A program made the translations under genes and the position numbers. This document shows, one piece after another, positions 24,331 to 42,643 of a DNA stretch of 64,000 nucleotides. Location: positions 24,110 through 88,109 of the forward strand of contig JANXMZ010000033.1 of assembly GCA_025354385.1 (NCBI GenBank), read 5' to 3'. The notes beneath the pieces are model-generated. The model did not search any database. It was not told where the DNA came from and saw only the letters and a list, made by a program, of their open reading frames with translations. Source of the stretch: Bacteroidota bacterium. Its GTDB lineage: Bacteria > Bacteroidota > Bacteroidia > NS11-12g > UBA955. Numbering within the stretch: the first letter of the stretch is position 1; every line of letters starts with the position of its first letter.

Positions 24331-24373
24331 AAAATGAACGCTACAACAAATGGCATATCACCTTTAATAATCA

Positions 24374-24591
24374 TGACCCCGAAGGGGTCACATGTATATA
24401 ACCCCCGACTTCAGTTGGGGACCCCAATCCTCTCGTGCATTATAGTTTGGCGACTTATTACAAAAAGACTCATAACACTTTTCAAAACTATTACATATTC
24501 AAAATTGACCCCAGAGGGGTCATATATCTCTAACCCCCGAATGAGGTCGGGGGTCAATAATAACCCAAGCATGATGGTTTGGCGACTTATT
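24374..24591. repeat. Two ~86-bp structured repeat units (period 132 bp), each with two GC-rich hairpins plus a conserved GTTTGGCGACTTATT tail
   Basis: - Unit A, 24374-24459: TGACCCCGAAGGGGTCA...CCCCGACTTCAGTTGGGG...GTTTGGCGACTTATT.
- Unit B, 24506-24591: TGACCCCAGAGGGGTCA...ACCCCCGAATGAGGTCGGGGGT...GTTTGGCGACTTATT. Confidence 0.8.
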
Positions 24592-24650
24592 TGTGCTCTG
24601 ACAAATAAGATGACAAACCATCTACCACACTCAACTCATCTGGTATACTA

Positions 24651-25451
24651 ATGGATCACAATGTACATAAAGTAAGCGATGCATTCTCGAAACAATCTGT
24701 TGTGTTTGATAATTTGTATACGACCAATTTATTATCTGAGTACATGCGTCAAAAATTCAGAGAGGAATTAGTCTTACACCTTAAACCACAATCGCATATC
24801 CTCGAATTGAATTGTGGTACTGGCATGGATACTTTGTACATTGCAGGATTAGGTCATACCATACTCGCCACCGACAATGCAGATGGTATGCTGAAACACA
24901 TTAAAGAAAAGGTAGATAAATACCAATTGCAAGACAGCATTAAAATACAGAAATGCAACTTCGAACATTTGGAACAATTGCAACCCGAAAAATTCGACCA
25001 TATTTATTCTAATTTTAGCGGACTGAATTGCACTGAACAACTCGACAAGGTATTACAATCCATGACACCCTTATTGAACGACAAAGGAAAAATAAGCATG
25101 GTCATCATGCCAAAAATTTGTCCTTGGGAATTGATCATGTTATTCAAAGGTCAATTTAAAACAGCCTTTCGCAGATTTAAAAAAGGTGGCACTGATGCAC
25201 ATATTGAAGGAACAGTTTTTAAATGCTTTTACTACAATCCCAACTATGTTATTAAGGCTCTTAAAAAAGACTTTAAAATAGTATCACTTAAAGGTATTTG
25301 TATTACAGTGCCTCCGCCATTTATAGAAAATTTTGTTGAGCATAATCCTCGTTTATTTAAGTGGCTGAGTAAAATTGATTCCAAAATTGAAAAATACTTT
25401 CCTTTTACAGTTTGCTGTGATCAATTTATGATAACGCTGGAAAAAATATGA
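24651..25451 (+). CDS. Class I SAM-dependent methyltransferase
   Basis: ILELNCGTGMDT (motif I, GxGxG-like) and an overall Methyltransf_11/25-like layout. 266 aa. Confidence 0.85.
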   Translation: MDHNVHKVSDAFSKQSVVFDNLYTTNLLSEYMRQKFREELVLHLKPQSHILELNCGTGMDTLYIAGLGHTILATDNADGMLKHIKEKVDKYQLQDSIKIQKCNFEHLEQLQPEKFDHIYSNFSGLNCTEQLDKVLQSMTPLLNDKGKISMVIMPKICPWELIMLFKGQFKTAFRRFKKGGTDAHIEGTVFKCFYYNPNYVIKALKKDFKIVSLKGICITVPPPFIENFVEHNPRLFKWLSKIDSKIEKYFPFTVCCDQFMITLEKI

Positions 25452-25583: not shown

Positions 25584-27914
25584 TTACTTGCCCACCACCT
25601 CGAATTTCACTTGTTGCGAAAAACCATTCTCGTCCGTCAACAACAACACATGCTCTCCTATTACAGGATTCAATGCCATTTGATGAATCTCTCTGGTTTC
25701 ACCCAAATACACTTCATCTAAATGCCAGTATATTTTAACGCCCGAATTGCGATGTACTGCCTCAAATATTGTTTGCCCTACAGTTCCATCTATCTCAATG
25801 GGCACATATATTTTCGCTCGCGGCCTTGGCGATAAAATCGCCATAGATTTATCGCTTATTTTAGCCAAACACTCTGGCTTATAATCGGGCAATACTTTAT
25901 AATCGGGATGGTTATATTTATAGTATTTTTCTATGGCGGGTGGTAAAACATACCAAGTGGTATGTAAAATTTCAAATGGATTTTCACAATCGGCATCTAC
26001 GCGTTTTAAACTGTGTTTGTTTAAATGCACCAATTGATGATAAGGGCAAACTGTTGTATTCAAACAAGTAGTAGGCACCGTAACATTGTCGGCATGCTCG
26101 CATAATTCTCCTGCTCTGTAACCGCTTTCTCTGCATATTTTTATTTCAGTCATATCCTGCAATGGTTTTGAAAACCAAGATACCGACTTAGGCAATTGCT
26201 GAAACACATTGAACATTAATGGAGCTGCGGCTCTAATACCTGTGAGTCCTGGCCTACCTTCGCCATCGGCATTGCCCACCCATACCGCTACCACATAATC
26301 GGGTGTTATGCCTATGGCCCACGCATCTCTAAAACCAAAACTGGTACCTGTTTTCCAAGCTACTTTTTGTGCCCCAGCAAACACTTGCCAATTGCCATCT
26401 TCATCGGGTCGATTCACTTCGGTCATGGCCTCAAAGGTGGCATAAACACAGGCCTTACTCATAGGTTTAATTGTAGATATTGAATTATTTCTTTTAATCA
26501 ATAAGCTAATGGACTTGCATTCATTCATACTTAATTGCTGAGCCATGTTGGTGTAAATTTTATTTAAGTCCCACAGCTTTACTTCCGCTCCTCCTAGTAT
26601 CAACGATAAACCATAATGCCTGGCCGATTGGTTCAAGGTAGAAATCCCACAGCATTTTAAATGATGGTGAAATTTTTCGAGACCATACTCATTTAACAGA
26701 CGTACAAATGGAATATTCAAACTGCGAGACAATGCTTGATTAGCTGGCAAGGCCCCATCGTATTCTCTGCTGAAATTCTTAGGCGAAAAATTACCAAAAT
26801 GCGAAGGCACATCGAGCAATAAAGTTTTGGGATTTATTATACCATCTTCCATTGCCGCTTCGTATAACAAGGGTTTTAAAATACTGCCCGAACTACGAGG
26901 CGCCACTAGACAATCTACATTGCTGCTATTCTCCACCCCTTCCGAAAAAGTGTTTCCCACATAGGCTAACACCTGACCTGTTTTTATTGAAGTTACAACT
27001 ACTGCTCCATTAAAAATTTTATTATCTCGCAATTGCAAACTATGCTGTTTTAAAATGGCAGCTACTTTTTCTTGTAATACATAATCAATACTGGTAGTAA
27101 TGGTTTGTCCTTTCTTACCTTCTTTAATTAAGCGAACCAATAGATGCGGAGCCAATTGAGGCAAGGGCAAAGGCTTATCGGGCAACTGCTCGCTCAAAGC
27201 CAATTGAAAAGCGGTTTCATCTAATACACCAATGCTAAGCAAACGCCTTAATAAACGATTGCGCTTCGCCAATAATCGCTCGTGATTTTTACCCGGATAA
27301 ATTAAACCAGGTGTATTCGGCAATACAGCAAGGGTAGCACTTTCGGCCCAACTTAAACTCGAAGCACTTCGTCCAAAGTAGCGCCAGCTGGCCGCTTCAA
27401 GTCCTACCACATTGTTGCCAAAGGGAGCATGCCCTGTATAAAAACAGAGTATCTCCTTTTTTGAATATCGCCACTCTAGTCGAGTAGCAATAATCATTTC
27501 TATAATTTTTTCTAAGAATGTACGCCTCGGATTTTTTTTCATAATGCGCACAACCTGCATCGTAAGGGTGCTGCCTCCACTCACAATTTTCCTATTCTTG
27601 AAATTTTGCACCACCGAACGACCAATGCCTTGAATACTAACACCCGGGTGCTTATAAAAATTCCTATCCTCGAATTGAATGATACAGGTCTTGAATTTAT
27701 AAGGAACACTATCGGACTCGGCAAAGCGCCACTGCCCATCTTCAGCAATCTTAGCACCCAATAATTTTCCATTTCTATCAAGTACAACTGTGGCTGTCGA
27801 ATCGTTAAACAACTGTTTAGGCAGACAGAAGGCATACCAAATTAAAAACAAAATGAGAAGCAAAATACTTATCCATTTAAGTTGTGAGCGGTGTGCTTTG
27901 ATAAATTGTTTCAT
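25584..27914 (-). CDS. pbpC: Penicillin-binding protein 1C
   Basis: Glycosyltransferase-51 motifs (EDRNFYKHPGVS, GGSTLTMQ), a transpeptidase SGSILKP (SxxK) and KTGTS, plus a long C-terminal PBP1C-type extension. 776 aa. Confidence 0.9.
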   Translation of the reverse strand: MKQFIKAHRSQLKWISILLLILFLIWYAFCLPKQLFNDSTATVVLDRNGKLLGAKIAEDGQWRFAESDSVPYKFKTCIIQFEDRNFYKHPGVSIQGIGRSVVQNFKNRKIVSGGSTLTMQVVRIMKKNPRRTFLEKIIEMIIATRLEWRYSKKEILCFYTGHAPFGNNVVGLEAASWRYFGRSASSLSWAESATLAVLPNTPGLIYPGKNHERLLAKRNRLLRRLLSIGVLDETAFQLALSEQLPDKPLPLPQLAPHLLVRLIKEGKKGQTITTSIDYVLQEKVAAILKQHSLQLRDNKIFNGAVVVTSIKTGQVLAYVGNTFSEGVENSSNVDCLVAPRSSGSILKPLLYEAAMEDGIINPKTLLLDVPSHFGNFSPKNFSREYDGALPANQALSRSLNIPFVRLLNEYGLEKFHHHLKCCGISTLNQSARHYGLSLILGGAEVKLWDLNKIYTNMAQQLSMNECKSISLLIKRNNSISTIKPMSKACVYATFEAMTEVNRPDEDGNWQVFAGAQKVAWKTGTSFGFRDAWAIGITPDYVVAVWVGNADGEGRPGLTGIRAAAPLMFNVFQQLPKSVSWFSKPLQDMTEIKICRESGYRAGELCEHADNVTVPTTCLNTTVCPYHQLVHLNKHSLKRVDADCENPFEILHTTWYVLPPAIEKYYKYNHPDYKVLPDYKPECLAKISDKSMAILSPRPRAKIYVPIEIDGTVGQTIFEAVHRNSGVKIYWHLDEVYLGETREIHQMALNPVIGEHVLLLTDENGFSQQVKFEVVGK

Positions 27915-31880: not shown

Positions 31881-32468
31881 ATGAAAAAATCGGAAGCAAC
31901 AAGACAGGACATTTTAGAAAAAGCATTTGAGTGTATTTATAACAATGGCTATAAGACAACAAGCATTGATGATATTATCACTGCAAGTAGATTAACCAAA
32001 GGGGCATTTTATTACCATTTCAAAAACAAAGATGATATGGGGTTAGCGGTTATTAATGAGGTTTTGTATCCATACTTGCACGAAACCATGGTTCAACCTT
32101 TGCAAAACGCTTTGAGTCCAGCCGATGATTTATACGGCATGGTATCGTATTTACTGCTTGATGAAACCTATTTCCAACCTGAATTTGGATGCCCATTGGG
32201 GAATTTAATGGTAGAACTTTCACCTGCTCATGAAGAATTCAATTCTATTTTGCTAGGCATTTCGAATGAATGGGAAGAAGCCATTGTAAAATGTGTGAAC
32301 CACGGCAAAAAAACTGGTTTAGTAAAAACTGAAACCAAGCCCAAACAAGTTGCTAATTTTATCATGTCAGGTTATTGGGGAACCCGATTAATGGGCAAAA
32401 TGGAGAATAGCAATGCGCCCTATAAAATCTTTTTAAAAGAACTCAAGCAATACCTGAAAGGCATTTAA
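31881..32468 (+). CDS. TetR/AcrR-family transcriptional regulator
   Basis: N-terminal HTH ILEKAFECIYNNGYKTTSIDDIITASRLTKGAFYYHFKNKDD. Confidence 0.9.
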   Translation: MKKSEATRQDILEKAFECIYNNGYKTTSIDDIITASRLTKGAFYYHFKNKDDMGLAVINEVLYPYLHETMVQPLQNALSPADDLYGMVSYLLLDETYFQPEFGCPLGNLMVELSPAHEEFNSILLGISNEWEEAIVKCVNHGKKTGLVKTETKPKQVANFIMSGYWGTRLMGKMENSNAPYKIFLKELKQYLKGI

Positions 32469-32478
32469 CCCAAATACA

Positions 32479-32524
32479 AATTCGTGATAAGAACATACCT
32501 AGTGGTATGTTCTTATCACGAATT
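32479..32524. terminator. 21-bp perfect-stem hairpin (AATTCGTGATAAGAACATACC-tagt-GGTATGTTCTTATCACGAATT)
   Basis: I paired the arms base by base: 32479-32499 pairs perfectly with 32504-32524. It starts 11 nt after the TetR stop and shares the ACATACC-N4-GGTATGT core with hairpins at 33301, 34052 and 42614. Confidence 0.6.
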
Positions 32525-32537
32525 AAAATACTCTCCA

Positions 32538-32606
32538 GTCCCGTAGGGACGACATTCCGGTAGCCTTACGGCAAACCCATAAGGCAGAATCCCGTAGGGA
32601 TGTCAT
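32538..32606. repeat. Two REP hairpins (GTCCCGTAGGGACGACAT and ATCCCGTAGGGATGTCAT), left flank of the RAYT gene
   Basis: Copies at 32538-32555 and 32589-32606. They are the reverse complement of the copies at 33267 and 34022. Confidence 0.75.
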
Positions 32607-32615
32607 ATTAGGGAT

Positions 32616-33077
32616 TTAAACCAATTCGTTGAACACATATTTCAAATCGTAATCGATTTCGAATTTTTCAAGATGTTCAATATATTCCTCGCGGAAGGAT
32701 TTTTTTGCATGGTGTTTTTCCTGGTTATTGATATAAGCAATCACATTTTTTAATTGAGATTTAGCATATGAAAAGGCACCATAACCTTCTTGCCATTCAA
32801 ACCTATTATTTTTAATCTTGTTTTTATTTATCCAAGCCGAAGAACCCGATTTTACAAATTGCATTAAATCCGAAATGGATTGGGTAGGACGCAATCCAAC
32901 GAGAATATGTATATGGTCCTCCATGCCGTTCATGGTAATTAATTTATGTCCATATGATTGAATTATAATGGTCATATATTTATACAATTCCTCTTTCCAT
33001 GACGCATGAATCATAGCCTTTCGGTATTTTACAGCGAATACAAATTGAATATGAATTTGTGTATATGTGTTTGGCAT
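32616..33077 (-). CDS. REP-associated tyrosine transposase (IS200/IS605 TnpA-like HUH/Y1 enzyme), no TnpB partner
   Basis: MPNTYTQIHIQFVFAVKYR..., the HUH motif in EDHIHILVG, and the catalytic-Tyr region AYINNQEKHH. The ATG at 33077 is preferred; the ORF is open to 33128. Confidence 0.85.
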   Translation of the reverse strand: MPNTYTQIHIQFVFAVKYRKAMIHASWKEELYKYMTIIIQSYGHKLITMNGMEDHIHILVGLRPTQSISDLMQFVKSGSSAWINKNKIKNNRFEWQEGYGAFSYAKSQLKNVIAYINNQEKHHAKKSFREEYIEHLEKFEIDYDLKYVFNELV

Positions 33078-33266
33078 AAACACAAATATATAATGCCCAA
33101 AACACCTCTTCCTAAAAAATTCAAACAAAAATATTTTTCGAATTTTTGTCTTTTGATTTTGAAATAAATATGAAAATTGTACGATTTGATTTTGGGAAGG
33201 TAATTTTCATTATTGGCTACTTCGATTGTGAATTGAGATTGGATTAACGAATTACATCCTACTGGA

Positions 33267-33320
33267 ATGCCGTCCCTATGGGACTAGGGGACATTTAAAA
33301 ACATACCATGCGGTATGCAA
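33267..33320. repeat. REP + hairpin composite, right flank of the RAYT gene
   Basis: ATGCCGTCCCTATGGGACTAGGGGACATTTAAAAACATACCATGCGGTATGC. Confidence 0.7.
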
Positions 33321-33333
33321 TCACAATATTAAT

Positions 33334-33939
33334 TCATTTTAAAAAAATAGCTGGTATAGAATCATACTTGGCGGCAGTGCCATACTCCTTTTGACAGATA
33401 ATTTTATTACTCGCTGTATCGTAAAAAAAATCATCGTATTCAACATCTGTGACTACTTCGCCATTGACATGTAGCAAACCCCAAGAGCAAATTTCATTAA
33501 TATTTCTTTTATCGCGCGAAAAGCTGTAGAAACCATTAATTACAGGTTGCCAATATTTGAAGGATGGATAAATTACAATCTCTCCACTAAAATCGGCCAC
33601 GCCATATACTGCATATTTTTTGGGACCTTTTGGGAAATATATACCCTTAAAATCCTTATTTGGCAACACCAATGGTAAATACAAAAAACTATCCGCAATG
33701 ATGTATTTTCTATATTCAACAAGCGTATCTACAATGGTAAAACTATCAATTGTCTTTCTCACAGAATCAAGCCCATCAGACCTATCTATGTATTCATACA
33801 TCACCATTCCATGTTTAAATATGTAACCCTTTTTTAGGTCATCAAAATTATCAGCTGGCTTTAAAATACCATTGCATCCTAAACCCATAAACATTAGAAG
33901 GAAAATAAATTTAAATCGAAAATGGCTTGGAATCTGCAT
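33334..33939 (-). CDS. WG-repeat (KWG-like) lipoprotein
   Basis: Lipoprotein signal MQIPSHFRFKFIFLLMFMGLGC. Repeats of the type YGVADFSGEIVIYPSFKY and WGLLHVNGEVVTDVEYDD. Confidence 0.65.
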   Translation of the reverse strand: MQIPSHFRFKFIFLLMFMGLGCNGILKPADNFDDLKKGYIFKHGMVMYEYIDRSDGLDSVRKTIDSFTIVDTLVEYRKYIIADSFLYLPLVLPNKDFKGIYFPKGPKKYAVYGVADFSGEIVIYPSFKYWQPVINGFYSFSRDKRNINEICSWGLLHVNGEVVTDVEYDDFFYDTASNKIICQKEYGTAAKYDSIPAIFLK

Positions 33940-34021
33940 TGTTTCAAATATACCTTTTTTGATATAAAACAAAAATTGGACCCACATAAATACATTTTAA
34001 CGGAATTTCATTCCTACCGAT

Positions 34022-34077
34022 ATGTCGTCCCTACGGGACTCGGGGCAATTTAAAAACATACCTTTCGGTATGTTTTT
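34022..34077. repeat. REP + hairpin composite, second forward copy
   Basis: ATGTCGTCCCTACGGGACTCGGGGCAATTTAAAAACATACCTTTCGGTATGTTTTT, nearly identical to 33267-33320. Confidence 0.75.
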
Positions 34078-40200: not shown

Positions 40201-42608
40201 CCTCCAACATACCAAACGGTATGTTAAAAACCTATTGGAATTTTGGCGATGCTATAACCGATAGTTTAAATTTGGTTACCCATAATTACAAGCAATATGG
40301 TATCTACCGAATTCAACTCACTTCTGTATCAGATAAGGGCTGCACAGATAGTACATTCAAACCTGTGGAGGTGTATCCAAAACCAACAAGTGCTATAGTT
40401 GCCAATGACAGTTCTCAATGCGAAAATACCAACTGGTATGTTTTTAACAGCATTATCAGTATACCCTATACAAACATTACTAAACAATACTGGAATCTCG
40501 ATAATATTTATATCCAAGGCAGCTCAGATACATTCAAGCATTATAATAATTATGGTCCTTACATTTCAGGGTTAATAGCCGAGAGCGAATATGGCTGTCG
40601 AGACACTTCGCTATTAAAAATTGATGTATTGCCAATTCCAACTGCAGGATTCTCTATTAACAAAGCCAACCAATGTGAAAACGACAATCAATATATTTTT
40701 ACCAATTCTTCTACTGTGCCTTATGGCAAATTGAGTTACTTATGGAACTTTGGCAATGGAGAAACTGACACTACCCAATCGCCAAAGAAAATATTTACAA
40801 TTTATGATTCACTTGATGTTACTTTAATTGCTCGCACTGTTCCTGGTTGCGAGGATACAGCTATATTACCAGTCGTTATTTATCCTAAACCATTGCCACA
40901 ATTTTCTATCAGCGATTCAACGCAATGTGTAAATGGCAATCTATTAATTTTAACCAATAACAGCAGCATTCCAATTGGAACCTATTCTTCCTTCTGGACA
41001 TTTGGTGATGGCAATTCTTCTAACGCCAAAGACACCTCCTATGCTTACGCACAATTTGGATTGTATAAAGTAAGACTTAACCTTCTATCCGATCAAGGTT
41101 GCCGCGATTCTTTAGATAAGACAATAACTATTTACCCCAAACCCATCCCTGAATTTAGTATTAACGATACAGGGCAATGCCTCAACAATCAGAGTTTTGT
41201 TTTCGAAAATTTAAGTACCATCAGTTACGGACCAATTCACAATGAATGGCGTTTTGGAGATTTTACAAAAGATACTACCACTTCACCCATTCATCAATAT
41301 GCAAGTTATGGTAATTTTATTGTTGAATTAATGACACAATCGCAATATGATTGTAGAGATTCAATTAAAATTCCCGTTCGTGTTTTTGCATCGCCATTCT
41401 CTCAGTTCAGTGTGAATGATACTGACCAATGCGTAAACACACAAATATTTAATTTTACTTCCAATTCTAAGATACCACAAGGCAAAATTATTCAACAAAA
41501 TTGGTTCTTTACAGATAATGGTATAGCAGCAGGTTTAACAGCAAAAAATCATTTCAAAAAACCGGGTTATTACAATGCATTACTAGTTGTAAAATCAGAC
41601 AGTAATTGTATTGATAGTTTTATAAAACCTTTACGGGTGTATCCAAAACCAATTGCAAAATTCATGGTGAATGATTCGGCACAATGTCTATATGAAAATG
41701 CTTATGTATTTACAGAAACTGCCTTTGATTCGATAGGTGTGAGCACCTATGAATGGGATATCAATTCGGAGAAAAAAGTAAGCACAACATCTGTTAATCA
41801 CATCTTTAAAACTGTTGGTTATAAATATGCTAATCTCATTGTTACATCTGTAGTTGGCTGCAAAGACACCACGCAGAGAGATGTATACGTAAAAGCCATG
41901 CCCGACCCTTTGTTCAACAAATTGAAATCATACTATTGCAGAGGCGAAATGGCCTTTAATTTAATTCCAAAGACTTTAGGTGGCACTTTCTTTGGCAAAA
42001 ATATCCTTGCCTCCGATTTTGTTGCTCAACACTTATGGAAAGATACTGTTAAGTATGTTGTTACCGTGAATGGCTGCACCGATAGTAGCTTCCAATATAC
42101 CAATGTGTATCCAAAACCGGAGGTACATTTAGGCAATGATACTCTACTGTGTAAATATGAATATTTTGAAAAAAATATTTCATTTTGGAATTCAACTTAC
42201 AAATGGAATACCTTAAGAGATGATTCCGTTTTCCGTTTTAATAGACCTGGCATATTTTGGGTAACTGTTTCAAATATTTGCGGCACGGCTTCCGACACCA
42301 TTGAAATAACTTTCCGCGATTATAATTGCCATTTCTATATGCCTAATGCCTTCTCACCAAATGGAGATGGCATCAATGATTTTTTCATGCCAATTTTATA
42401 TGGGGTAGATCGTCTTGAATTCGAAATATACAATCGCTGGGGTGAAAAAGTATACATGGGTGATATTAACAGCAAAGGTTGGGACGGCAATTACCAGAAC
42501 GAGCCCGCCCAGCAAGAAGTATACCTATGGCGGGTTGGCTATAGTTTTATGGCTGGCAATCAGAGAGTCAATTTGTATGAGAAGGGTATGTTTACTTTAT
42601 TAAGATAA
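34239..42608 (+). CDS. Giant cell-surface protein: about 25-30 PKD-like Ig repeats with a T9SS type-B (gliding-motility-associated) C-terminal sorting domain
   Basis: - 2789 aa with signal peptide MKLIVHYILLALCCFALNTALGQ.
- Repeating units of about 80-85 aa of the form F..........C....F.F.N.S......Y.W.FGDG..S....P.H.Y...G.Y.V.L......GC.D.
- C-terminus YMPNAFSPNGDGINDFF...EIYNRWGEKVY...GWDGNYQ. Confidence 0.92.
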   Translation: MKLIVHYILLALCCFALNTALGQCSANFTSSKTKYCLHDTSRFTAIGSNLSPSYSWDFDDPYSGSENTDTSNQPKHIFSHTGWFNVSLIVNDGTCKDTITHTILILDLPIAKIKVLSPCLASSTSLASLSSSDTLDQISSYSWQYGDGTTGTGASTLHTYAATGNNTVLLKITTTNGCIDSANKSISIFDKLTLIKSFDSLCQEDEIDFDVNTGTSTAAQWQWDFGDSTTGNISNPLHQYSKSGLFKPQITVTYSNGAKCSAADAVYVYALPDASFYIISDSIQCYKNNQVCIKLNNPNQLLTRRSVAFDDGFVDDFSPLTDSIVCHTYTDAGGSKYTLSISILDNHFCAASYNVKQKVTIHPLLIANFDNKASNGCFGTPVTINNLSNFRPPFVKKFKWTFGDGAVDSSTWSSVYHKYVADGQFSIKLFLKDTYNCIDSMTSSNTIRNTTFVIDAKRDSMNGHCYSRNRLYYSQTPIAGAGVRWYLGSQDSSFGWKTAAYIRSTGTFKSYIRIDKNGCDSITYIDTFVINGPIARYGLVSNQYQCQIKDTVELTNSSITFRNGPLSIHWDAVDIFANNCTIDTKNGNNLNMNCRYSIDSLIFRHMYKPGKENCYYPKIVVSDSLTGCNDSVTINLPLRPPDASQGLPFFRSIGCIGPEQYKTITLDLSRTQPICGREAAWTMWDSTCAANSGNFNAYWNLNSRTHNYGYDNQPCDSNGFVTIGIIIQNGKDSFGRTCRDTAFYHNVLQFQKVDPRFTSNYNPNIHYCKNSTITFFPDTKYQDSIGSMVWDWGDGSSTNGINFSPTPHTFKQSGFYKVVLTITMINGCAAIDSTRIKIGLSENIGFLKGEICLDDTVQLLEHINYWGDAYPWWSNASRAGQNKETLKWDIGDGNGFSVSGGNPFIQYNKIGNYSLRVAIKDSMDCLDTIGLKNAIRVFNIKSNFTVLKDTFVCDQLIAFKSTASVYDSIHHFGHPDDYVASFIWRFKPGTSFSTLKNPYKFLKAGTHLVSYTATNSRGCKDSTVKNVVVIGPTSQYEFIGDTIGCQPLTVQFKNSSKDANSYTWSFKDSSNNTYSTNADTNVSYQFKSYGKFYPVLTARGKFKSNGFPVTCQTVFPDTTIAGFREVTVYETPQPNFTYSTNCNTNTTAFTNTSKMKSAVIDRFEWDFGDGDTSMQTNPIHQFTDTGRYVIILKAYSPKGCTDTIIRKIVISPFPVTRFSYNLTCLGKTTFFIDSTVAFNDRIFKWSWDFGDSTFSNLRNPSKKYFKDSSYNVKLTTTNLAGCSGTLTKTVVVHPQPKANFTFVNTCLEKAIELKDSTNSKDTPLKLLWRLGDNSTDSTAIVLKKYAGAGNKTVKIICTTASGCMDSVIKTIHIYAKPLSDFSIAKKEQCLRNNLFVFKNNSTTDTGSLTYHWTFGNGLASIAKDTTLTYAAIGSYTIQLITNTANNCKDTATDSVLLDPHPATGFQINNIAQCYNINHFIFIDTSHISKGSFTRKWNTGDNQNYTDSFLLHRYNDSGNYSVQLSLLSDKGCADTLQKNVRVHPQPSAQFTIDSIAKCLRNNLFKFTNTSTTPYGSNTYRWFFGDGDSLQSTNATHSYISFDTFAIQLIATNSNLCRDTISKTVIVHPMPNAQFSIDDSLQCTYANAFSFTNRSNIQLGMLTYNWNTGDGNGYNNKDLQHSYTKYGNYKVTLTATSNQNCIDSTVHPLEVYAMPLPAFTINDAGQCEKNNNFIFTDSSKIGLGTYSIYWNLGDNSNSNLSKVSKTYNTAGTYLIKLTLTSNQGCKDSLSKSITLFPKPTPLFIIDKDKQCERNNLFNFTNQSSIITGRFNNTWEFGDGKKTTSQNAIHTYDTFGVYFVKLITESDSACSDSITKNITVEPMPLPAFAVNKIAQCLNDQLFKFTDTSKIGLGTYQRLWTLGELDSSALANPNKLFKAFGLYTIWLKLTSDKGCFDSTKMDIEVYPKPLPSFSINDSTQCINTNHFIFKSTSNIPNGMLKTYWNFGDAITDSLNLVTHNYKQYGIYRIQLTSVSDKGCTDSTFKPVEVYPKPTSAIVANDSSQCENTNWYVFNSIISIPYTNITKQYWNLDNIYIQGSSDTFKHYNNYGPYISGLIAESEYGCRDTSLLKIDVLPIPTAGFSINKANQCENDNQYIFTNSSTVPYGKLSYLWNFGNGETDTTQSPKKIFTIYDSLDVTLIARTVPGCEDTAILPVVIYPKPLPQFSISDSTQCVNGNLLILTNNSSIPIGTYSSFWTFGDGNSSNAKDTSYAYAQFGLYKVRLNLLSDQGCRDSLDKTITIYPKPIPEFSINDTGQCLNNQSFVFENLSTISYGPIHNEWRFGDFTKDTTTSPIHQYASYGNFIVELMTQSQYDCRDSIKIPVRVFASPFSQFSVNDTDQCVNTQIFNFTSNSKIPQGKIIQQNWFFTDNGIAAGLTAKNHFKKPGYYNALLVVKSDSNCIDSFIKPLRVYPKPIAKFMVNDSAQCLYENAYVFTETAFDSIGVSTYEWDINSEKKVSTTSVNHIFKTVGYKYANLIVTSVVGCKDTTQRDVYVKAMPDPLFNKLKSYYCRGEMAFNLIPKTLGGTFFGKNILASDFVAQHLWKDTVKYVVTVNGCTDSSFQYTNVYPKPEVHLGNDTLLCKYEYFEKNISFWNSTYKWNTLRDDSVFRFNRPGIFWVTVSNICGTASDTIEITFRDYNCHFYMPNAFSPNGDGINDFFMPILYGVDRLEFEIYNRWGEKVYMGDINSKGWDGNYQNEPAQQEVYLWRVGYSFMAGNQRVNLYEKGMFTLLR

Positions 42609-42613
42609 ACGAT

Positions 42614-42643
42614 AAAACATACCGATTGGTATGTTTTTATTTG
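42614..42643. terminator. Bidirectional intrinsic terminator between convergent genes
   Basis: AAAACATACC-gatt-GGTATGTTTT followed by TATTT, and A-rich on the other strand. It sits between the stops at 42608 (+) and 42648 (-). Confidence 0.7.

Follow-up and report, generated by a model that had tools for sequence, protein, structure and literature searches.

A probable REPtron-like locus based on an IS200-type transposase in a Bacteroidota bacterium

Repetitive extragenic palindromic (REP) sequences and the tyrosine transposases associated with them (RAYTs) are the textbook example of how a domesticated transposase keeps up a population of short repeats, and they have so far been tied to class 2 enzymes, mostly from Proteobacteria. 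The TnpA transposases of the insertion sequences (IS) IS608 and ISDra2 bind subterminal hairpins on single-stranded DNA and cut 3' of a tetranucleotide that lies at a fixed distance from the hairpin. The subject of this work is a locus in a 64,000-nt stretch of a Bacteroidota genome (the window, whose coordinates are used throughout) in which a solitary gene for an HUH/Y1 enzyme, tnpA (32616-33077, minus strand), lies between inverted hairpin repeats. A REPtron-like locus that uses an enzyme of the IS200 type is in our view the probable explanation; a resident enzyme of TnpA-Y1 subclass 1.2 would act there in trans on cognate, inward-facing hairpin modules.

Subclass 1.2 was described by Quentin et al. 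2018 (BMC Genomics 19:475, PMC6006769) as close to IS200 but without IS properties, mostly restricted to Cyanobacteria and Bacteroidetes and generally without terminal secondary structures of the IS200 type. Its copies are few per genome and show low identity to each other. In Table 1 of that work the subclass is given the motifs DH[IV]H, WQ and YIKNQKEHH, a median length of ~148 amino acids (aa), a specific C-terminal domain of ~30 aa and the entry 'REP: no'. No published report of partner repeats for this subclass was found in the literature searched, which does not prove that there is none.

In its layout the locus resembles the class 2 REPtrons (REP-RAYT or REPIN-RAYT systems, a REPIN being a REP doublet forming a hairpin; PMC8266576, PMC3116915), with which it has in common a single- or low-copy HUH/Y1 gene, inverted cognate hairpins with GTAG, dispersed gene-less doublets and the co-occurrence of gene and repeats. 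The Marinomonas REPtron Mb (PMC8266576) also has 5-bp hairpins concentrated near the gene. Unlike the class 2 RAYTs of E. coli, Pseudomonas, Stenotrophomonas and Marinomonas, the enzyme of the window is a class 1 protein with a Y-x3-Q motif, to which the E. coli RAYT structure 4ER8 is only a distant fold match, and the copies of the modules number tens and not hundreds. The best sequence and fold matches come from the IS200/IS605 elements (IS608, ISDra2; PDB 2VJV, 2XMA), and a tetranucleotide at a fixed distance 3' of a hairpin is likewise seen at the right end of IS608. The HUH, Tyr and Gln residues are common to both, and Y115 and Q119 of the tnpA protein are spaced like Y127 and Q131 of IS608 (IS608 numbering as in the legend to Fig. 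1 of PMC6006769). In contrast to these elements, the locus is without tnpB and without identical multi-copy elements, its ends are mirror images and its enzyme carries an extra C-terminal tail.

An enzyme of the IS200 branch

The gene tnpA is intact and encodes a predicted single-strand DNA endonuclease/ligase of 153 aa, which matched Pfam Y1_Tnp with 102.6 bits and NCBIfam IS200 with 81.4 bits (cut-off 55), while the match to NCBIfam NF047646 (REP_Tyr_transpos) reached 31 bits and failed the cut-off of 80. The protein contains the motifs EDHIHIL (DHIH), EWQEGYG (WQ) and YINNQEKHH, so that its tyrosine motif is Y-x3-Q-x2-HH and not the Y-x3-NP of class 2. The preliminary description of this locus had recognised a solitary HUH/Y1 gene from HIHIL and YINNQEKHH and had seen no TnpB; the Y1_Tnp match bears this out, and no open reading frame (ORF) of tnpB size was found near tnpA. 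Residues D54, H55, H57, W95, Q96, Y115, Q119, H122 and H123 were invariant in one alignment of homologues (A1), and in a second (A2) the same was true of all of them except H57, which was nearly invariant. H55, Y115, Q119, H122 and H123, the HUH/Tyr residues that the preliminary description had left to be checked in a proper alignment, are therefore invariant in both. Moreover, the C-terminal tail of ~30 aa, SF(R/K)xEYxxxLxKFxIxYDxKY, is conserved among the homologues.

A search of the PDB sequences with the tnpA protein matched the TnpA proteins of ISDra2, Sulfolobus and IS608, and 4ER8 gave no sequence match at E<=1. In an AlphaFold model (mean predicted local distance difference test, pLDDT, 78) the best 29 fold matches were chains of IS200/IS605 TnpA; 4ER8 followed at rank 30 with 12% identity. 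Look-ups of the exact tnpA protein and of the exact product of the neighbouring WG gene (described below) gave no matches.

Three genes of the subclass 1.2 type are present in this genome, the other two being 64% and 40% identical to tnpA, and none exceeds 64%. The 40 relatives that were compared carry from none to three copies, all diverged, and five further genomes carry one to six. The orthologue in the relative L136 has 92% protein identity, with a ratio of nonsynonymous to synonymous substitutions (dN/dS) of 0.07 at a dS of 0.45.

Its motifs, tail, length and profile scores place the tnpA product in TnpA-Y1 subclass 1.2 and not among the canonical RAYTs. The HuH, W and Y motifs of the subclass are all present, together with its length and tail, its low copy number, its low identity between copies and its occurrence in Bacteroidetes. 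The published property that does not hold here is the absence of REPs, which is a descriptive trait and not a defining feature of the protein. As regards subclass 1.1 of IS200/IS605, the Y1_Tnp and IS200 matches are found, and near-identical multiple copies and a tnpB partner are not. The inverted flanking hairpins of RAYT class 2 are present, whereas Y-x3-NP and a score of at least 80 bits are absent. The claim that this is the architecture which defines RAYTs can thus be kept for the inverted cognate hairpins around the gene, but not for the enzyme, which fails the canonical RAYT tests (31 against 80 bits, Y-x3-Q).

Hairpin modules around tnpA and its homologues

The hairpins that had been reported as inverted around tnpA were confirmed, all quoted motifs being verified at their coordinates in the window: those left of the gene have one orientation and those right of it the opposite one. 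REP-L1, the outer module downstream of tnpA (32538-32563, plus strand), begins with GTCCCGTAGGGACGACAT / GTCCCGTAGGGAC at 32538 and consists of the hairpin GTCCC-GTA-GGGAC (32538-32550), a 9-nt spacer and GTAG (32560-32563), with its tail towards tnpA. Its distance of 55 nt from the tnpA stop codon is the canonical one, and it scored 34.3 bits with covariance model R1 (C22:56643-56674). The inner module, REP-L2 (32589-32614, plus strand; ATCCCGTAGGGATGTCAT / ATCCCGTAGGGAT at 32589), has the hairpin ATCCC-GTA-GGGAT (32589-32601), the same 9-nt spacer and GGGA (32611-32614) in place of GTAG, with 1 nt between its end and the stop codon triplet of tnpA. Between the two, immediately 3' of the GTAG of REP-L1, there is a second, imperfect hairpin, CCTTACG-gcaaacc-CATAAGG (32564-32584, plus strand).

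On the other side of tnpA, REP-M (33259-33284, minus strand; ATGCCGTCCCTATGGGAC at 33267 and GTCCCTATGGGAC at 33272) has the hairpin GTCCC-ATA-GGGAC (33272-33284), a 9-nt spacer and GTAG (33259-33262), again with the tail towards tnpA, and scored 29.6 bits with model R1 (C22:57366-57397). It is separated from the ATG by an AT-rich upstream region of 181 nt (33078-33258, minus strand), which is common to L136 and lacks the family's canonical inner hairpin. REP-R (34014-34039, minus strand; GTCCCTACGGGAC at 34027) lies further away with its tail towards the WG gene; it has the hairpin GTCCC-GTA-GGGAC (34027-34039), a 9-nt spacer and GTAG (34014-34017), and with 37.5 bits (C22:58121-58152) it scored highest of the three. 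The downstream pair therefore has the canonical layout of the family, whereas the upstream side is non-canonical.

The comparison was extended to 18 loci from relatives and to 80 further homologous loci from across Bacteroidota plus two Pyrinomonadaceae. At the relatives' loci each gene copy bears its own hairpin, inverted on its two sides, with a tail of the type ATATCTGTAG; the stem differs with the gene copy, and ATCCC, GCCCC, GCTCC, GCCAC, ACCCC, GTCGC and GCCCT are among those seen. At least one site formed by a hairpin, a short spacer and GTAG or GTAA lies within 400 bp of the gene at 69 of the 80 loci, which is not in line with the published 'REP: no' of the subclass. The density of modules at these loci is 4.2/kb near the gene and 0.23/kb beyond 700 bp, and 0 inside the gene, and module pairs face inward at 29 loci and outward at 4. 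The spacer from the 5-bp core stem to GTAR is exactly 9 nt in 201/242 sites, with loops that are mostly GTA, GTTA or ATA. This also distinguishes the modules from the class 2 repeats, which have GT[AG]G at the 5' foot of the hairpin, whereas GTAG or GTAA is found here 3' of the stem. Circularity was avoided by anchoring on the tail alone and scoring the paired stem at the fixed and at a control register; the stem was fully paired in 73/87 cases at the former and in 3/87 at the latter, with 17 different stems.

The canonical layout runs from an outer hairpin over 9 nt to GGTAG, then ~25 nt to an inner hairpin and ~12 nt to the ATG, and is mirrored past the stop codon. We take the cognate module of the enzyme to be a GC-rich hairpin of 5 bp whose loop is GTA, GTTA or ATA, with exactly 9 nt between it and GTAG or GTAA; such modules lie on both sides of the gene and turn their GTAG ends inward. 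The modules are a family-wide partner of the enzyme and not a local accident.

The preliminary description had also noted two near-identical forward copies on either side of the WG gene, and a repeat search did find a direct repeat of 61 nt (33257-33317 and 34012-34072, 84% identical, 755 bp apart) around the ORF at 33334-33939, as well as 41-nt inverted matches between 32523-32563 and both of these copies (78-80% complementary). A simple segmental duplication around the WG gene, with no element biology behind it, might leave such repeats, since the similarity of the two forward copies includes spacer and terminator and the exact hairpin is confined to the locus. Yet the left copies are inverted and not direct, REP-R occurs in the sister lineage L135 with the remainder missing, and the same module geometry is present at those 69 of 80 unrelated homologous loci. 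As the whole explanation a duplication is largely refuted by these loci, by the 9-nt spacer and by the canonical layout, and we attach almost no probability to it.

A second alternative is that the hairpins act at the RNA level, as terminators, mRNA stabilisers or a small RNA (sRNA) such as Acido-Lenti-1, and are unlinked to the enzyme, whose gene would merely sit in hairpin-rich DNA. The REPs are indeed 13-30 nt from terminator-like hairpins, and in E. coli both termination and mRNA stability are known to be influenced by REP elements (background in PMC6006769). In addition, a full-length but sub-threshold match to Rfam RF01687 (Acido-Lenti-1; 22.8 bits, gathering score 37) covers REP-L1 at 32537-32584 on the minus strand. 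Its two helices and linker align to REP-L1, the 9-nt spacer, CTAC and the next hairpin on the opposite strand, with the imperfect hairpin at 32564-32584 corresponding to the 7-bp helix. This family has been described as an RNA of unknown function (Weinberg et al. 2010, PMC2864571) and not as a DNA repeat. In the whole window, every Rfam family stayed below its gathering score, and no Acido-Lenti-1 match at E<=0.01 was obtained in 20 homologous loci. An effect on RNA also leaves unexplained the mirror-image placement at fixed distances from start and stop (29 loci against 4), the covariation of the stems with the paralogue, the fixed 9-nt spacer to a conserved GTAG, the lack of a T-run at the REP hairpins and the co-occurrence of module matches with the gene across genomes. 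We regard this alternative as very improbable, and the alignment hints instead that the orphan Acido-Lenti-1 'sRNA' is a DNA repeat of this kind.

Several further hairpin arrays were observed beside genes of this family and elsewhere. The 64%-identical paralogue (G000:C47:169779-170459; L002/L023) has five ATCCCGTAGGGAT modules upstream with a period of ~50 bp and two degenerate modules downstream; the ATCCCGTAGGGAT module is also found at C37:2290-2350 and at the ends of contigs C24 and C47, where such arrays probably break the assembly. The 40%-identical paralogue (G000:C48:24544-24984; L003) has downstream two units with CAACCACGAAGTGGTTGAATGT hairpins, ~130 bp apart, and no obvious module was seen upstream. 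Within the window, 24334-24651 contains two double-hairpin units of GACCCC-loop-GGGGTC, 9 nt, TAAC and a second GC hairpin, which have the REP-module geometry with TAAC for GTAG and interrupt an otherwise tightly packed operon. At L040:2109-2168 (Flavobacterium sp. J49) a Flavo-1 RNA (RF01705, 58.6 bits, above threshold) lies ~155 nt downstream of a tnpA homologue and is unrelated to the REP module.

Dispersed copies and the rearranged neighbourhood

Recurrence of the REP elsewhere in the genome had been proposed as a test of the preliminary reading, and taken literally the outcome is against it. In the 3.67-Mb assembly (85 contigs), GTCCCKTAGGGAC was found nowhere outside this locus, and as ~0.1 chance matches are expected, its occurrence here is not due to chance. 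The exact hairpin of this copy exists in 4 copies, all local, and the dispersed copies expected of a RAYT are thus missing for this gene. Hairpin-N9-GTAR modules with other stems do recur in this genome, where the covariance model gave 18 matches, three of them at the locus. A strict scan for hairpin plus tail gave 14 matches in this genome against 1-8 with control tails; the covariance model was clearer than this, and a loose pattern of the tail alone was too unspecific.

Where the assembly is complete, dispersed modules without a gene are seen, as in two other genomes. Bernardetia sp. OM2101 has one tnpA homologue and 30 sites of the strict pattern along its chromosome, against 0 for a reversed control pattern, and Mucilaginibacter sp. 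X4EP1 has 16 such sites against 0. Many of the Bernardetia sites fall in a gene-less recurring unit of ~230 bp, composed of two modules in forward and two in reverse orientation whose GTAG ends face each other; this unit corresponds, in REPIN-like form, to the flanks of the gene itself. Across this genome and the 40 relatives, covariance-model matches were present in 15/19 genomes with the gene (203 matches) and in 5/22 without it (12 matches), a comparison in which the relatives are not independent and part of the training sites came from the same genomes. The four gene-bearing genomes without model matches have visibly different tails.

The neighbourhood of tnpA differs between close relatives. 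Its conserved left synteny anchor, which serves here as context only, is a TetR-family regulator gene (tetR; 31881-32468, plus strand; Pfam TetR_N and TetR_C_13), whose orthologues in relatives are 66-74% identical and, in G008 and L139, syntenic with histidine kinase and LytTR genes. To the right lies the WG gene (33334-33939, minus strand), a putative lipoprotein gene of 201 aa and a neighbour outside the element. It had been called a WG-repeat lipoprotein; a lipoprotein gene is present at these coordinates, but the match to Pfam WG_beta_rep (23 bits) is below the curated cut-off of 25.6, so that the similarity to WG repeats is weak. The gene is lineage-restricted: none of the 40 relatives has it, and a search of 5.8 billion proteins gave only three homologues, which come from close relatives.

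Three arrangements can be compared. Lineage A, that of the window, has tetR, terminator, REP-L1, REP-L2, tnpA, REP-M, terminator, WG gene, REP-R, terminator and adhesin gene. In lineage B (L139 with L135) tetR and a terminator are followed by four unrelated genes, the WG gene, a REP, a terminator and the adhesin gene, with no tnpA in the interval; the REP upstream of the WG gene in L135 is the equivalent of REP-R. Lineage C (L136, L137) has tetR, one shared terminator, the WG gene and tnpA; GTCCC hairpins are absent from it, and tnpA is flanked by a CCCAAT-rich direct repeat of ~33 nt (CCACAACCCAATTNCCCAANTGCAATTCC; L136:47-80 and 800-832, 753 bp apart). Neither the L136 repeat nor AATTCCGTTAA forms a family in this genome.

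The tnpA segment common to lineages A and C is 32613-33257, and it ends within 2-3 nt of GGGA (32611-32614) in REP-L2 and of CTAC (33259-33262) in REP-M. At 34012, immediately past the GTAG of REP-R, the WG segment begins and the homology with L136 ends. The region is a rearrangement hot spot with breakpoints at the GTAG ends, and tnpA is a resident gene, kept by selection, around which the neighbourhood rearranges. More than one species has such a hot spot downstream of tetR. G008 has at its syntenic site (L037:660-900 and 1255-1500) a duplication with copies ~600 bp apart, which is full of other REP-like hairpins (CAACCACGAAGTGGTTG, GCCGCCGATAAAATCGGCGGC, GACCCCAGAGGGGTC with a GTAA tail) and has no tnpA.

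The suggestion that the WG gene was captured or inserted between REP units is not supported by these comparisons, as lineage B has adhesin gene, terminator, the same REP and WG gene with no tnpA near. In the synteny check proposed in the preliminary description, tnpA is absent from the lineage B interval and from the G008 site, and the WG gene is present in lineage B beside the adhesin gene. It looks as if the WG gene were a lineage-specific resident beside the adhesin gene, the variable parts being the positions of tnpA and of the REPs.

These differences also bear on the view that tnpA belongs to an ordinary autonomous IS200-like insertion sequence, of which the modules would be the ends, a unit of ~650 bp would transpose and the gene-less copies would be derivatives of the miniature inverted-repeat (MITE) type. 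The NCBIfam IS200 equivalog match (81 bits) and a compact, stereotyped unit whose modules abut the ORF fit this view. Moreover, the gene is patchily present in the genus (12/24 genomes), it is absent from the syntenic site of G008 and from the L139 lineage, and it lies on one side of the WG gene in this genome and on the other in L136. However, near-identical copies are lacking (the paralogues are 40-64% identical, and Bernardetia has a single copy), tnpA has been under strong purifying selection over a dS of 0.45 in the same neighbourhood, and the segment common to the two lineages excludes the hairpins. The ends are also mirror images and not the asymmetric left and right ends of IS200/IS605, and subclass 1.2 has been described as without IS properties (PMC6006769). 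An autonomous element of this kind is in our judgement unlikely, though it is the strongest of the alternatives, and we continue to prefer a resident enzyme with partner modules.

Each REP had moreover been described as joined to an ACATACC hairpin in a composite unit. Three such terminator-like hairpins, with no strand assigned, lie at the locus. The first (32479-32524) has a 21-bp perfect stem with the core ACATACC-TAGT-GGTATGT directly 3' of the tetR stop codon. The second, CATACC-ATGC-GGTATG (33301-33317), is 16 nt past the stop codon of the WG gene and a terminator-like site on the minus strand, and the third, AAAAACATACC-TTTC-GGTATGTTTTT (34052-34077), lies between REP-R and the upstream region of the adhesin gene and is found in L135 too. 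The genome has CATACC-N4-GGTATG at 26 sites, of which nearly all are bordered by an A-run on one side and a T-run on the other, and most lack a REP; those in the window are at 32494-32509, 33302-33317, 34057-34072, 25949-25964, 40208-40223 and 42618-42633. The same core hairpin, with differing loops, follows the tetR stop codon in the REP-less relatives G008, L139 and L136, and a hairpin of this type is also found past the WG stop codon in L136. For this reason the composite is rejected as a single mobile element and is a juxtaposition, in which a REP lies beside a pre-existing terminator. A REP-like hairpin is close by at 8 or more of the 26 sites, which suggests a preference of the REPs for such places and not one mobile unit. 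A conserved stem at unrelated terminators is unusual, and may represent a repeat family or a protein-binding site.

Mode of action and significance

The fixed geometry of hairpin, 9 nt and GTAG together with the conserved HUH, Tyr and Gln residues makes an IS608-like chemistry the most likely function of the tnpA protein, with the GTAG end as the point of cutting and joining. In analogy to the IS608 and ISDra2 right ends, we infer that the enzyme would bind the module hairpin on single-stranded DNA, cut and rejoin at or next to GTAG and act in trans on gene-less modules, and that tnpA would be kept by selection.

Some observations weigh against a REPtron-like locus of this kind. The NCBIfam database files the protein as an IS200/IS605 transposase, and in this draft assembly there is no dispersed population of the exact REP of this particular tnpA. 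Five genomes without the gene still yield a few model matches, in a comparison of kin that are not independent and with overlapping training sites. The inward GTAG ends are on opposite strands, which gives no simple fit to the same-strand peel-and-paste of IS608, and the different position of tnpA relative to the WG gene in two lineages may mean that the gene itself moves.

A broader proposal, which we put forward tentatively and with less assurance than the reading of the locus itself, is that subclass 1.2 enzymes and hairpin-N9-GTAG modules form a widespread REPIN/RAYT-like partnership in Bacteroidota and some Acidobacteriota, that its origin in the IS200 branch was independent of the RAYTs of Proteobacteria, that GTAG is the site of cleavage and joining, for which the breakpoints at this locus speak, and that Acido-Lenti-1 is this DNA module and not an RNA gene. 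The locus contributes a downstream module of canonical form, a REP family confined to one place and natural breakpoints of rearrangement where cleavage is predicted. The hairpin-9 nt-GTAG geometry and the breakpoints of the locus provide a directly testable prediction of the cleavage site.

If this is true, a parallel system common in Bacteroidota would exist on the IS200-like branch, and this life style would have evolved more than once. The system would also represent an intermediate between insertion sequences and REPtrons. Moreover, many intergenic hairpins that lack annotation in Bacteroidota genomes would find their explanation in it, as would probably at least one orphan 'RNA family'.

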